A DNA stretch of 64,000 nucleotides from an uncultured Actinomycetota bacterium (GCA_963822695.1 CAWGJH010000010.1:10094-74093); one strand, 5' to 3'; counted from the first letter of the stretch, positions 34,425-41,347 are shown. The notes: generated by a model from the letters alone, not told the origin. Numbers and translations: made by a program.

Positions 34425-35556
34425 GTCGCGAGTAGTTGTCGGGATCGTATGGTGTCGTGGGTGAGGACGATGCTGTGGCGGGGGACGGTGGCCAAGGCGT
34501 CGCGGGTGCGTGCCCAGATCTGGTGGCGGTGGTCGGGGGGGTGATCCGGGTCAGGCGAAGGAAGTCGAGGTAGCGGTCGTCGTGGTCGGGGTCGAAGAAG
34601 TCGCTGGTGGTGACGGTGCGCGAGGAGGCGTCGAGGCGGGGTTCGCCGTCGGGGTCAAGACGAGGGAAGATCAGTGCGGTGGCGGTGGCGGAGCGGGTGA
34701 GTTGCAGGCCGAGCCAGTCGGTGAGTTGGTGCGGGAATAGTTGGGTTTTGAGCTCGCGGCCGTGAGAGTCGCGCAGTGGGCTGGTGTGGCCGTTGAGGAT
34801 GGCGGTGGTGACGGCGGGGTCGACGGTGGGGTGCAGGTGCTGCCCGGCGGCAAGCTGAGTGCGCACGCCGTCGAGGAGGCCATGGGCGTGCAGCAGCCCG
34901 AGTCCGAGCGCCGCGGCGGCGGGCCAGGGCAGCAGGGCCCGGGTGGCGGGGTGCAGGAAGACCCGGTCGTTGGCCAGAAGCTGGTGGCCCTGCGTGGTGA
35001 GCAGTAGCGCGGTGGTGGTCTTGCCGGCGCCTTTGGGTCCAAGCGCGAGGGTGGCGTCATTGTCGCGGACGGCGGCGCTGGCGTGCATGATGGCCCACCC
35101 ATCGGCTTCGAGCTGGGCTCGGATGAGTTCGCGGGTGATGCGGGCGGCGGCCAGGCATAGGCCGAGGGACATGGTGGCGGTGAGGGTGAGCCGGGTGCGG
35201 CAGGTGTCGGTCTCGTAGGCGACCTGCTCAGCGGGATCGACCGCACAGACGGTGTTGTCGGTGTTGTCAGCGACGTGGAGGGGGTTGCGAGCAAACTCAA
35301 TGATCCGGTGGGGCCGGGTGTTGAGGCTGTCCTGGGCGGCGGCGAAGCGGTCGGGATCGACGTGACAGTGGAGCACGGGGCCACTGGTGTCGGCCGCTGA
35401 GGTGGTGGGTCGCACGGTCCACCAGCAGCCGAAGTACTGGGTGATCCAGTCGGTGACGGCGGGGGCGTCGCTGATGACGAGAACGGTGGCGGGTCCGGCA
35501 CTGACCAGCACGACGTGCGGCGGGATTGAGGTAGGCACGGCTCGCTTCCTTGTCAA
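34385..35556 (-). CDS. HPr-kinase-like P-loop protein (HprK-related kinase family), C-terminal frame ambiguous
   Basis: Has IMHASAAVRDNDATLALGPKGAGKTTTALLLTTQGHQLLANDRVFL. As written, the ORF runs on to 34027, antisense through ftsQ, with a Pro/Ser/Arg-rich tail. A 1-nt change in the G7 run at 34535-34541 gives ...ITPPDHRHQIWARTRDALATVPRHSIVLTHD... ending at TAG 34385. Confidence 0.55.
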
Positions 35557-35558
35557 TT

Positions 35559-35774
35559 CTACAGATAGCTCTGGACGTGGTCATAAAGGATCTTGAACCG
35601 GTGCGCGCTGACGTCAAGTGCGGCTTGTTCGCTGGGGGAGTGTTCAGGCGGATCGTTCCAGTAGTGGCTGGCGACGAACCGCAGCCGTTGCCCGAGGTGG
35701 TACACGCCATCGGCGCCGGTAGTGGAGAATTCCTCGTGGCCGTCGGTGAGTCCGAGCAGCTTGGTTCGGAGCAC
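35559..35774 (-). CDS. hypothetical 71-aa protein, 2 nt upstream of the HprK-like gene
   Basis: GTG start. GC-rich third positions, as in neighbouring genes. I recognise no family (…GADGVYHLGQRLRFVASHYWNDPPEHSPSEQAALDVSAHRFKILYDHVQSYL). Confidence 0.4.
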   Translation of the reverse strand: MLRTKLLGLTDGHEEFSTTGADGVYHLGQRLRFVASHYWNDPPEHSPSEQAALDVSAHRFKILYDHVQSYL

Positions 35775-36075
35775 TCCGCACCGTCATGGAGCTGGTACCT
35801 GTGTCGTCATGAAGCCGTTCCTATCTTCCCGTGCCGGGGTGTCGTGGCTTTGTTGAGCAGTTCGCACAGCTGCGCCGTCAGCGCCCGCGTGGCCCTGTTG
35901 TTTCCTAGAGATCCTTGGTCGCTAGTGCGACTGCGCTCAAGGCGCCGGGAACGCATCTATGCACCCGGACTTCACACAATTAGGTCACCGCAAACCGGCT
36001 ATCGGTTGTTTGCCGACGGTTTCTTGTCAGGCCAATCCGGACATCCCGGAACACGGTTCCCCGTTGGCGCCGATA

Positions 36076-36555
36076 TCACTCCTCGGCGAAGGCGTGAGTG
36101 GCGCGACGGTAGCGCTGGGACAATGCGGCCAGTCGGTGCGGGGGCCACAGGTCAGCCTGTTCGCTCACACTCAGGTCGCCGCCGCGGCGCAGCAGCCAGA
36201 TATTGTCGAAGTCCGTCAGCACCGCGTCGCCGGGGATCCGGTACAGCAGGCTGGATACCAGCCGGATCATGTCATCCTCCTGATCGGAGATCTCGCCCTC
36301 CTTGTCGAGGCGGAACGCCACCAACACAGTTGGAGTGAACCCGAGGTCGGTGATCACCGAATTCCATGGCTGGGGTCTGGCCTCAACTACCCGGATCCAG
36401 GTGCCGAGCCCGGTCACCGTTCCCTCGTCGAGTACCTGCTCGGGGGTGACCGATGCGTCGAACGGCCCGATGGTCCGCGCGGCGTCGTGCAACGCGCGGG
36501 CGACCTGCGCCGCGGGCGACGACGTCGCCATGTCAAGAGTGTAGGAAATGGCCAT
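36076..36555 (-). CDS. putative immunity protein (SitI3-like) for the upstream toxin
   Basis: ATG at 36555 lies 23 nt after the toxin stop, with AGCGAGGA as SD. 159 aa, acidic. Motifs VAFRLDKEGEISDQEDDMI...DNIWLLRRGGDLSVSEQADLWPP are typical of polymorphic-toxin immunity proteins. Confidence 0.6.
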   Translation of the reverse strand: MAISYTLDMATSSPAAQVARALHDAARTIGPFDASVTPEQVLDEGTVTGLGTWIRVVEARPQPWNSVITDLGFTPTVLVAFRLDKEGEISDQEDDMIRLVSSLLYRIPGDAVLTDFDNIWLLRRGGDLSVSEQADLWPPHRLAALSQRYRRATHAFAEE

Positions 36556-36578
36556 CTGATAGTCCTCGCTTGGTGAGT

Positions 36579-39727: not shown

Positions 39728-40146
39728 GCGTCCTTGAGTCCACCGAAGGCCTGGTGACCCGGGTGCGGGTCCTGGTCGGCTCCGACGTCGACCCGGTCCG
39801 CCTCGCCGGGAAGGTTCCCATCGCCAAGAGCGACTGCTCGTACTACTGCCCCGACGCGGTTACCGCCGAGCGGTGCATCAAGGCCCTGCGCGAGTACGAC
39901 GAGCGCCTGCGCTCCCGCCCCGAGGAGCAGATGCTCTGGGACTGGGAATGCACCTACTTGGAAGCCGAGCCGGGCAACCCCAACGGCGGCGGCACCGTCA
40001 TCCTCGGCGTCGCCTGGTTCGACCAGGCGTTCTTCGATGACCGGCGCGACGCCTGGTTCGGCGCCATGCACACCCGCATCTACCAGACGCTGGGCATCCC
40101 GCTGGACAACATCACAGTCACCCACTGGGCAGCCCTCACCAGCTGA
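39724..40146 (+). CDS. hypothetical protein (140 aa)
   Basis: ATG follows AAGGAAAAGGAAG. Codon bias looks coding. I recognise no family. A strong hairpin follows. Confidence 0.55.
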   Translation: MSVLESTEGLVTRVRVLVGSDVDPVRLAGKVPIAKSDCSYYCPDAVTAERCIKALREYDERLRSRPEEQMLWDWECTYLEAEPGNPNGGGTVILGVAWFDQAFFDDRRDAWFGAMHTRIYQTLGIPLDNITVTHWAALTS

Positions 40147-40165
40147 CCCCCGAACGCCCTTCCGA

Positions 40166-40203
40166 CCTGCGACCCTCACCCAGCCCTGGGCCGGGGTCGC
40201 AGG
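40166..40203 (+). terminator. stem-loop after the 140-aa gene (no U-tract)
   Basis: CCTGCGACCC (40166-40175) pairs with GGGTCGCAGG (40194-40203). There is an inner CCCAG/CTGGG helix. Confidence 0.4.
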
Positions 40204-40307
40204 TAGCCGTCCCCAGTCCAACCGTAGCTCTCCACCGGCTCCGCTGCGTCACACTGTTCACGCTGGCCTCGCTCGGGCCGCAGTGTCGCTGTGGCGAAGG
40301 GGGCGTC

Positions 40308-41099
40308 GTGGATCGGATCATCACTCGTCTCGGACTGGCCGACGATGAGCCCACAGTCCTGCACAACCGGCGAGGCACCACCGTCTACAAAATCAACAAT
40401 ATCGCATTGAAGATCACCAGTGGTCTCATGGCGGCCCGTGAAGGCGAGATCTTGCACCTGCTCGGCACCGAGTTCTACCGCGACCACGGATGGGACGAGG
40501 AGCGATCCTGGCTGATACTGCGGTGGATTGATGGCACCGGCCTGTGGACCGAGTTGGAGCGGGCTCACCGAGGTGACGACAGCGCCACGATCAAGGGGCG
40601 CATGCTCGCCCTGGCGGGCGGGGCGGCACAGGAACTGGCGAAACTCCACGCGGCTGGCTGGGCACACGGCGACCTGCAACCCGACCACGTCATCCTCGAG
40701 GGCGAAGTCATGCAGATCATCGACCTGGCCTGCGCCCAAGGACCCGCCGATGTGCCGTTCTACGTCCATCGTGGCGGGCTCGCACACACCACCGCCCCCG
40801 AGGTCGCCGAACTCATCCTCAACTCTGAAGAACACATCACGCTCACTGCCCAAGCCGACATCTGGTCCCTGGGGGCGTCATTGTGGTGGGCTTGGACCCA
40901 TACGACACCTATCACCTACACCGACCCCGCAGCGGGCCGTATAGCGCAACTCAAAGACATCGCCGCCGCAGGTCGTCTCGATCCCAACGCTGCCCGGCCG
41001 TGGCCGTTCAAGGAATTCGAGGAGGCCGTCATGGCCTGCATGGCAACAGACCCCCGCGACCGCCCAACTGCCGAACACGTCGCCACCGCGCTGCGCTGA
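40308..41099 (+). CDS. stand-alone protein-kinase-like protein with atypical catalytic loop
   Basis: 263 aa. Has IALKI (VAIK-like Lys), HGDLQPDHVIL in place of HRDLKPxN, IDLACA in place of DFG, TTAPEV (APE), DIWSLGASLW and DPRDRPTA. No glycine-rich loop and no extra domains. Confidence 0.65.
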   Translation: MDRIITRLGLADDEPTVLHNRRGTTVYKINNIALKITSGLMAAREGEILHLLGTEFYRDHGWDEERSWLILRWIDGTGLWTELERAHRGDDSATIKGRMLALAGGAAQELAKLHAAGWAHGDLQPDHVILEGEVMQIIDLACAQGPADVPFYVHRGGLAHTTAPEVAELILNSEEHITLTAQADIWSLGASLWWAWTHTTPITYTDPAAGRIAQLKDIAAAGRLDPNAARPWPFKEFEEAVMACMATDPRDRPTAEHVATALR

Positions 41100-41347
41100 G
41101 CTGCCGCATACACTTGCGGCGCTGGATCGCTGGCCCGCTCGGCGTGCCTGCTGGACGTCACCGATGTCGGTGCCTACCGTCGCCCAGGACACAGAGCTGA
41201 CATAACTCTAATCCTCCAGATGAGGTTGAGGGTTCTGCCACGCCGAGGGGAGCATGAGTTGTCCGGACGTCGGCGGGGTGCTGGCAGCGATGAGGAAGGC
41301 CGCACTGTGGTGGATCACGCAGGGATGAATAGCGAAGGTGCAAGCGG

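Follow-up and report, generated by a model that had tools for sequence, protein, structure and literature searches.

Why are ftsQ and ftsZ, which adjoin each other in the canonical actinobacterial order of the division and cell-wall (dcw) genes (mraZ ... murE-murF-mraY-murD-ftsW-murG-murC-ftsQ-ftsZ), kept several kilobases apart in an uncultured soil member of this phylum, and what is the DNA that lies between them? The locus is part of a 64,000-nucleotide stretch from an uncultured Actinomycetota bacterium (GCA_963822695.1, CAWGJH010000010.1:10094-74093; hereafter the window), in which a first-pass annotation, made from the sequence alone, had described a 6.9-kb accessory island with a toxin cassette between the two genes. 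The separation was borne out by gene calls, which placed 6,923 bp between ftsQ (33618-34424) and ftsZ (41348-42628). In blastn comparisons with six related loci, the homology of all relatives stopped with the final base of the ftsQ stop codon (34424) and restarted at 41099-41103, giving 34425-41098 (6,674 bp) as the inserted DNA. The start assigned to the island in the first-pass annotation was right, but its end at 41347 was not, since the last 249 bp belong to a conserved ftsZ upstream region. The inserted DNA is probably a strain-variable accessory islet of an uncultured Pseudonocardiaceae species, located in the short non-conserved stretch that follows the ftsQ stop codon and precedes the ~245-bp upstream region of ftsZ, and built up by insertion, replacement, and decay. 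Proteins clustering with those of the window were named as Pseudonocardiaceae or Pseudonocardiales proteins from metagenome-assembled genomes (MAGs).

State of the ftsQ-ftsZ site in related genomes

Relatives were collected by an FtsQ homologue search; a scan of metagenomes with FtsQ gave three loci only, and a look-up of the exact FtsQ sequence of the window gave no record. The following states of the site were found.

L086 (JGI, 48-kb contig; 96.7% identical across the cluster): ftsQ and ftsZ 339 bp apart, with a 61-bp stretch in the place of the islet
L081 (ENA, 1.5-Mb contig; 97.5% identical): 5.1-kb island, joined to ftsQ at the same point as in the window
L100 (FtsQ 88% identical): island type and ftsQ junction as in L081
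L084 (clade member): unrelated 2.2-kb insert encoding a membrane protein and an SBP_bac_3 solute-binding protein
L087 (clade member): ~0.8 kb of extra DNA
L098 (clade member): no ftsZ within reach; 8 kb or more with genes resembling those for halogenases
L090/L091 and L085 (more distant clade members): canonical short spacer

The comparison of ftsQ-ftsZ synteny, which the first-pass annotation had proposed as a check, was decided by L086: the site of this near relative was empty, so the extra DNA is accessory. What the islet replaces is the 61-bp non-conserved part of the ftsQ-ftsZ spacer, as seen in L086. Pieces of the L086 spacer persist in L084 and L081, on the right-hand side of their inserts, and also in the canonical locus L090, and the short spacer is therefore regarded as the older state and not as the scar of a deletion. 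Extra DNA was present at this site in six of the nine informative clade loci, and the insertion points within the spacer differed between lineages. The inserts are regarded as separate events inside the same stretch of 60-130 bp. Taken across the aligned loci, the DNA between ftsQ and ftsZ is evidently accessory and strain-variable, occupying the site in some close relatives and missing there in others, with the form in the window unique. Remnants of mobility genes, a further mark of genomic islands, were represented by an IS110-family remnant (38526-38859), and domain scans found no intact transposase or integrase in the insert of the window.

The insert is neither a single island nor a fresh toxin insertion. 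Its left third is shared with L081 and L100 (hereafter the older island), and the remainder, comprising the toxin cassette, insertion sequence (IS) debris, and kinase, would be a later replacement. It is unlikely that the order ftsQ-island-ftsZ was original in the clade and that the short spacers of L086, L090, and L085 are secondary deletions. L100, whose FtsQ is 88% identical to that of the window, already has the older island with the same overlap on ftsQ, and its island has diverged about as much as the flanks (89% against 91-94%). Moreover, no IS remnants were found in the islands of L081 or L100. Close relatives with the same gene order and without IS remnants were what the first-pass annotation itself had named as evidence of an ancestral arrangement; L081 and L100 do carry the older form in this way, but the toxin-IS-kinase part was found in the window only. 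In addition, motifs of the L086 spacer recur in the canonical spacers of L090 and L084 and at the right edge of the L081 island, and a deletion would not recreate these. Short spacers were also found in the distant canonical loci L090/L091 and L085, and in ~90% of the sampled Actinomycetota.

This sample consisted of 77 species-representative Actinomycetota loci holding both ftsQ and ftsZ, among which more than 1 kb separated the two genes in seven species (~9%). The cargo in these included arginine-deiminase genes (Amycolatopsis acidicola), transporters (Segniliparus), a PadR pair, and, in Actinomycetota bacterium CA-103832 (L057 7122-9544), intact genes for an IS110 (297 aa) and an IS256 (495 aa) transposase. 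The insertions of Amycolatopsis acidicola, Segniliparus rugosus, and CA-103832 resemble that of the window in placing 1.5-4.5 kb of extra genes after the ftsQ stop codon, but the cargo of the other Actinomycetota insertions was unrelated to that of the window, and none had a toxin cassette. The ftsQ-ftsZ junction is not especially inviolate. The first-pass view that a toxin cassette at the most conserved junction of the division cluster is unusual was overstated, given this frequency and the degenerate state of the cassette.

The two IS families in the CA-103832 insert are the same two that had been proposed as remnants in the window. In L098 (8913-16912; the organism is the same as for L083 and L099), the 8 kb or more downstream of ftsQ hold minus-strand genes, including those for a flavin reductase, three Trp-halogenase-like proteins, and one FAD_binding_4 protein. 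This insert looks like a biosynthetic cluster at the same site.

Parts of the islet

The features of the islet and of the region directly upstream of ftsZ were as follows.

34385-35556, minus strand: HprK-like P-loop protein gene, convergent on ftsQ, frameshifted
35559-35774, minus strand: the "71-aa open reading frame (ORF)", a 3' remnant with the last 66 codons of a 298-aa Ldh_1_N-like gene
35764-35879, no strand assigned: 116-bp remnant matching L081 18067-18182, part of a 50-aa ORF (94% identity)
36076-36555, minus strand: immunity gene of the SitI3 family, 159 aa, apparently intact
36579-38075, minus strand: polymorphic toxin gene, 498 aa, start ATG at 38075, CdiA_C domain
38075-38365, minus strand: 96-codon WXG100 gene, interrupted in frame by a TAG codon (38237-38239)
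38526-38859, minus strand: IS110-family transposase remnant, ~330 bp, no ORF
39190-39636, plus strand: broken XRE regulator gene (HTH_3, 2e-4), with two frameshifts and truncated after ~100 codons
39628-39723, plus strand: remaining 3' end of a PhyH-family dioxygenase gene, matched in tblastn by residues 218-237 of the L093 PhyH protein (75% identity, 7e-6)
39724-40146, plus strand: gene for a 140-aa protein, intact, paired with the kinase on other contigs
40165-40204, plus strand: stem-loop with 19-nt arms (-31.1 kcal/mol, z = -2.74) and no U-tail, between the 140-aa gene and the kinase gene
40308-41099, plus strand: short Ser/Thr-type protein kinase gene, 263 aa, intact, its stop abutting the ftsZ upstream region
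41099-41347, plus strand: conserved ftsZ upstream region (putative promoters and leader), 249 bp, in all relatives with or without an insert

The gene identifications of the first-pass annotation are essentially right. The five minus-strand genes directed toward ftsQ (HprK-like, 71-aa ORF, SitI3 immunity, CdiA_C toxin, and, if the TAG codon is read through, WXG100) and the three plus-strand genes (broken XRE, 140-aa gene, and 263-aa kinase) were all present. No more than three of the genes were apparently intact: those for the SitI3 immunity protein, the 140-aa protein, and the kinase.

L081 shares the first 1.45 kb of the insert (window 34425-35879) with the window. The older island (L081 14676-19646; L100 5096-8841) has in L081 the order HprK-like, Ldh-like, APH-like, 50-aa ORF, and a divergent 418-aa XRE regulator; its short ORF (34-50 aa) ends in ...KTGTAS. 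HPr-kinase-like lasso-peptide kinases exist, and by analogy the older island may be a small-peptide-modifying operon. The similarity of the HprK-like protein to HPr kinases was confined to the P-loop region (HprK_rel_A, 1.5e-6), and the cut-offs of the curated families were not reached (TIGR04352, 27.5 bits against 200; PF07475, Hpr_kinase_C, 16.7 against 33.3). Its own family has 873 representatives, typically of 365-390 aa. The intact form in L081 and L100 comprises 383 aa and ends 40 bp inside ftsQ on the opposite strand, with the last ~9 codons and the stop codon of the L081 gene lying on the ftsQ antisense strand. Truncation of this gene at the junction was considered and rejected, as the 383-aa form of L081 aligns end to end with the homologues of 365-390 aa. 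In the window the gene is frameshifted by a homopolymer difference near 34537 (C7 against C5), and for this reason a 509-aa ORF overlapping ftsQ is regarded as an artefact.

The next two features are debris of the same older island. In tblastn with the Ldh-like protein of L100, residues 233-298 matched the 71-aa ORF (63% identity, 2.5e-22). A 2,012-bp deletion relative to L081, with its breakpoint at 35763/35764, took the rest of the Ldh-like gene and the APH-like gene, and the 116-bp remnant, which was also matched in L100, is the last block shared with the older island. In L081, murE is split into ORFs of 420 and 105 aa (8425-10004) and the Ldh-like gene into ORFs of 83 and 203 aa (15853-16741), which suggests that this assembly contains indel errors; frameshift differences between the window and L081 are therefore to be read with care.

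The following three genes make up a WXG100-toxin-immunity cassette, in which the WXG100 gene lies upstream of the toxin gene, its stop codon overlapping the toxin start codon, and the SitI3 gene (NF040657, 1.4e-35, 122.8 bits against a cut-off of 31) begins 23 nt after the toxin stop codon. The toxin start, previously placed at a GTG codon that gave 538 aa, was corrected to the ATG at 38075 (498 aa). The C-terminus of the toxin matched PF18451 (CdiA_C, 8e-18) and PDB 4G6V (9e-39). Its N-terminal ~340 aa are common to proteins with other C-terminal toxins, some of which are named WXG100 family type VII secretion target, and among homologues with 60-75% identity over the N-terminal 60-80% of the protein, the toxin domain is CdiA_C, PF15647, or colicin D; a conserved N-terminus with alternative C-terminal toxins, as in delivery domains, was thus found. 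L094 and Amycolatopsis sp. L095 have intact copies of the cassette, with the same order and sizes (96 aa, 494-495 aa, and 159-161 aa), in unrelated genomic surroundings, and the cassette is accordingly viewed as a mobile three-gene unit.

In gene order, gene sizes, and the shared N-terminal domain, the cassette agrees with type VII-secretion WXG100 polymorphic toxin cassettes such as those of L094 and L095. It differs from them in having a stop codon at the signature Trp of WXG100 and an Asn for a catalytic Asp of the toxin, and in the lack of type VII machinery among the ORFs checked upstream of the dcw cluster: ten ORFs (2.5-23.5 kb) gave only housekeeping functions in Pfam, with no Ecc or other type VII components. 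The WXG100 gene was recognisable only when the TAG codon was read through. With Trp restored, it scored 50.3 bits with TIGR03930 (cut-off 44.85) and 48.4 bits with PF06013, and the TAG aligned with the WxG-motif Trp of the intact L094 and L095 partners; the gene is a probable pseudogene.

CdiA-CT of Burkholderia pseudomallei 1026b (Bp1026b), from a contact-dependent growth inhibition system, is a PD-(D/E)XK tRNase with the catalytic residues E187, D214, D223, and K242 (PMC9086364). The C-terminal ~140 aa of the window toxin align with this domain (PDB 4G6V) and share three of the four catalytic residues: the equivalents of E187, D223, and K242 are kept, but that of D214 is Asn417 (AAC, 36825-36827), so that the tetrad is incomplete. 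Asp was kept at the D214 position in all 21 alignable sequences with the toxin domain, which came from actinomycetes, enterobacteria, and Bp1026b. In a PD-(D/E)XK enzyme, an Asp-to-Asn change at a catalytic position is expected to impair activity severely. From the assembled sequence and this general knowledge of PD-(D/E)XK enzymes, we infer that secretion and catalysis have been lost and that immunity is perhaps still selected. Since the cassette is degenerate in both the WXG100 and the toxin gene, to speak of a toxin at the division cluster is to credit it with too much activity at present.

The toxin also differs from those of contact-dependent inhibition systems. CdiB, filamentous-haemagglutinin repeats, and a VENN motif are absent, and the toxin, with 498 aa, has none of the domains of the very large, repeat-bearing CdiA; VENN-bearing proteins matched only the last 24-26% of the toxin query. 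The delivery domain is actinobacterial, and the immunity protein belongs to the SitI3 family and did not match the CdiI chain of 4G6V.

To the right of the cassette, the claim of IS110- and IS256-like remnants held for the former. In blastn against plasmids, the IS110 remnant matched 24 records carrying the annotation IS110 family transposase, at 66-71% identity and with E values as low as 2e-28, and a six-frame Pfam search of this remnant gave no match. The IS256 candidate consisted of a ~15-aa resemblance seen by eye and was not confirmed: a six-frame Pfam search of 38366-39400, tblastn with the IS256 transposase of L057, and a plasmid protein search were all empty. The XRE remnant was 93% identical in nucleotides to 8073-8377 of the MAG contig L093 (89% over 88 aa in tblastn), and a 1.5-kb deletion relative to L093 (8378-9915) took the rest of the XRE gene and all of the PhyH gene except its last ~20 codons. 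The kinase gene (Pkinase, 7.5e-10; LanL kinase region, 1.3e-15) was 88% identical to L093 in nucleotides. The 140-aa protein belongs to a cluster of 31 members, of which the other full-length ones also mostly have 140 aa, and it had no match in Pfam, NCBIfam, or PADLOC. With regard to a defence role of the pair, PADLOC returned nothing for the 140-aa protein and generic kinase-fold matches only for the kinase (PD-T4-6 and mad6, ~1e-11). The strong hairpin that had been claimed between the dcw promoter and ftsZ is present at 40165-40204 (-31 kcal/mol).

The 140-aa gene, the 263-aa kinase gene, and PhyH recur together on several MAG contigs of Pseudonocardiaceae and Streptosporangiaceae. A fuller XRE-PhyH-140-aa-kinase cluster is found in L093, where these genes (9256-11426) lie beside a Tn3 transposase fragment.

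History and present role of the islet

The variable part has a GC content of 64.6%, the window one of 68.1%, and in tetranucleotide distance the variable part is second of 118 (about +2 standard deviations). The GC content at third codon positions (GC3) of the islet genes (0.76-0.93) overlaps that of the host genes. This composition suggests donors among related high-GC actinomycetes.

In the history that we propose, an older insertion would have brought in a convergent set of HprK-like, Ldh-like, and APH-like genes and a small ORF, together with a divergent XRE gene, which L081 and L100 have retained. In the lineage of the window, a 2-kb deletion would have eliminated the APH-like gene together with the larger part of the Ldh-like gene, and the XRE side would have been replaced, through illegitimate recombination, by a three-piece patchwork of toxin cassette, IS110 debris, and XRE-PhyH-140-aa-kinase fragment. 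Point decay would then have produced the nonsense codon in the WXG100 gene, the Asp-to-Asn change in the toxin, and the frameshifts in the XRE and HprK-like genes. At present, most of the islet would be inactive; the immunity gene may still protect against related toxins of neighbours, and the 140-aa gene and the kinase gene appear functional.

Alternatively, the islet could be kept for an effect on division, whether by antisense transcription into the 3' end of ftsQ, insulation of ftsZ, or addiction. In L081 and L100, the opposite-strand HprK-like gene does share 40 bp with the ftsQ 3' end, most clade members have extra DNA at the site, and an intact immunity gene adjoins the toxin-like ORF. 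The cargo, however, is wholly different between lineages, most genes in the copy of the window are broken, and a relative at 96.7% identity has an empty site; because of the catalytic substitution and the stop codon in the secretion partner, the toxin cannot enforce addiction. Such functional coupling is accordingly improbable.

Several observations weigh against the islet and the history proposed here. The inner junctions (35879/35880 and 41098/41099) were seen in one contig only. All of the sequences are metagenome assemblies, so the WXG100 stop codon, the frameshift in the C-run, and the Asn417 codon are known from assembly only, and the effect of the Asp-to-Asn change is read from sequence. 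Neither boundary or terminal repeats, a target-site duplication, nor att-like repeats were found at the islet ends, and no tRNA or tmRNA gene or integrase domain was found at the site, which bears on the mechanism of insertion; site-specific integration of the integrative-island or prophage type was rejected on these grounds. A simple sigma-70 scan of the plus strand of 41099-41347 gave no consensus match. Finally, L100 has the older island and yet is more distant than L086 with its empty site, for which reason the order of gain and loss, or an exchange by recombination, can only be inferred.

With respect to the assembly, it would take a misjoining of the inner part (35880-41098) by the assembler to produce this arrangement artificially. 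The window comes from a MAG contig, to which the inner junctions and the toxin and kinase proteins in their exact form are confined, and the contigs of two relatives stop ~100 bp after ftsQ, indicating that the region breaks assemblies. Both flanks, on the other hand, come from the same genome, with 97.5-98% identity to L081 on each side, there is no repeat at the inner junctions that could mislead an assembler, and the GC3 of the islet genes matches the host. The ftsQ junction is common to three independent assemblies, which excludes the misassembly at this point that the first-pass annotation had asked to be checked. We consider such an artefact highly improbable. The inserted DNA is a real, multi-step mosaic islet at a permissive spacer, largely decayed, and represents no new kind of system.

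The ftsZ upstream region and the surrounding cluster

How ftsZ is transcribed across such an insert is a question that its upstream region may answer. In Mycobacterium smegmatis, ftsQ and ftsZ are co-transcribed, and promoters of ftsZ lie both within the ftsQ ORF and between the two genes; more than one ftsZ promoter has also been reported for Streptomyces, Corynebacterium, and M. tuberculosis, and proximal ftsZ promoters have been shown experimentally in mycobacteria (PMC3139271). The present locus resembles the multi-promoter ftsZ regions of mycobacteria, Streptomyces, and Corynebacterium in having a conserved block directly upstream of ftsZ: invariant blocks including CGGCGTGCCTGCTGGA and TGCCTAC were found in all seven aligned loci. 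It differs from M. smegmatis, where some ftsZ transcripts start inside ftsQ and the two genes are co-transcribed, in that ftsQ and ftsZ are parted by 6.7 kb, 3.9 kb of which is occupied by minus-strand genes, with the stem-loop at 40165-40204 in addition; such transcription is thus unlikely here. The islet would cut ftsZ off from read-through and from promoters inside ftsQ, and the proximal region of ftsZ would take over. The islet leaves this conserved region intact, which fits the use of proximal promoters, and ftsZ is most likely transcribed from its own conserved proximal 249 bp. If ftsZ runs on its own proximal region, the tolerance of this spot for insertions would be explained.

The ftsZ leader (41300-41347) contains repeats of the GGAYAGCG type, about two in the window, four in L086, and three to four in L084 (also present in L087), and these correspond to no Rfam family. 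A search of the window with Rfam found no RNA family.

The dcw genes around the insert were called as follows.

26124-28001: penicillin-binding protein gene
28091-29683: murE
29680-30750: mraY
30755-32236: murD
32233-33621: ftsW
33618-34424, plus strand: ftsQ (POTRA_1, 1.3e-12)
41348-42628, plus strand: ftsZ (Tubulin, 6.6e-47; FtsZ_C, 3.1e-35)
42625-43338: pgeF
43355-44110: ylmE
44146-44934: sepF
45364-46155: divIVA

The 4-nt overlaps noted in the first-pass annotation for murE/mraY, murD/ftsW, and ftsW/ftsQ were all exact in these calls. In two respects the cluster departs from the canonical actinobacterial one: ftsQ does not adjoin ftsZ, and murF, murG, and murC were found nowhere in the 64-kb window. 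The order murE-mraY-murD-ftsW-ftsQ, without these three genes and with 4-nt overlaps at joins, is common to the window, L081, L086, and L084. L087 retains murC in its dcw cluster; L100 also retains murC and has lost murD, of which scraps of 65 and 59 bp are left; and the cluster of L096 is without murD, murG, and murC. L090/L091 are canonical over the covered stretch (murD-ftsW-murG-murC-ftsQ-ftsZ), the L090 contig beginning inside mraY, so that murF is outside its coverage. The dcw cluster is eroded in this clade.

Elsewhere in the window, a TgpA_N ORF of 309 aa (20121-21050) has a 769-aa counterpart in L081 (1-1380) with TgpA_N and transglutaminase-core domains, and the window copy may be another truncated gene. 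The segment 54729-58772 encodes component B of glycine/sarcosine/betaine reductase, with GrdB-like subunit genes, and a DUF5940 protein, which is unusual for an actinomycete.

These findings do not change the current understanding of cell division or toxin systems. They provide a natural example in which the ftsQ-ftsZ junction takes up kilobases of foreign, largely opposite-strand DNA as long as the ~245-bp ftsZ upstream region stays intact, and they support the view that actinomycete ftsZ is able to run on its own proximal promoters. The cassette illustrates the usual end of a polymorphic toxin cassette, in which the secretion partner and the catalytic site are lost and the immunity gene stays as a possible orphan protector. 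The wider pattern, with several different inserts at one spacer and the loss of mur genes from the cluster, is perhaps the more useful lead. Tentatively, and with some doubt, we suggest that the dcw cluster of this clade is falling apart, with murF, murG, murC, and in some members murD gone, and that the ftsQ-ftsZ spacer has turned into a site where unrelated cargo lands repeatedly, namely a toxin cassette, a peptide-modification-like operon, a transporter, and halogenase genes. If this is true, ftsZ transcription would be fully autonomous in the clade, and the selection that holds the cluster together would be relaxed across the lineage.

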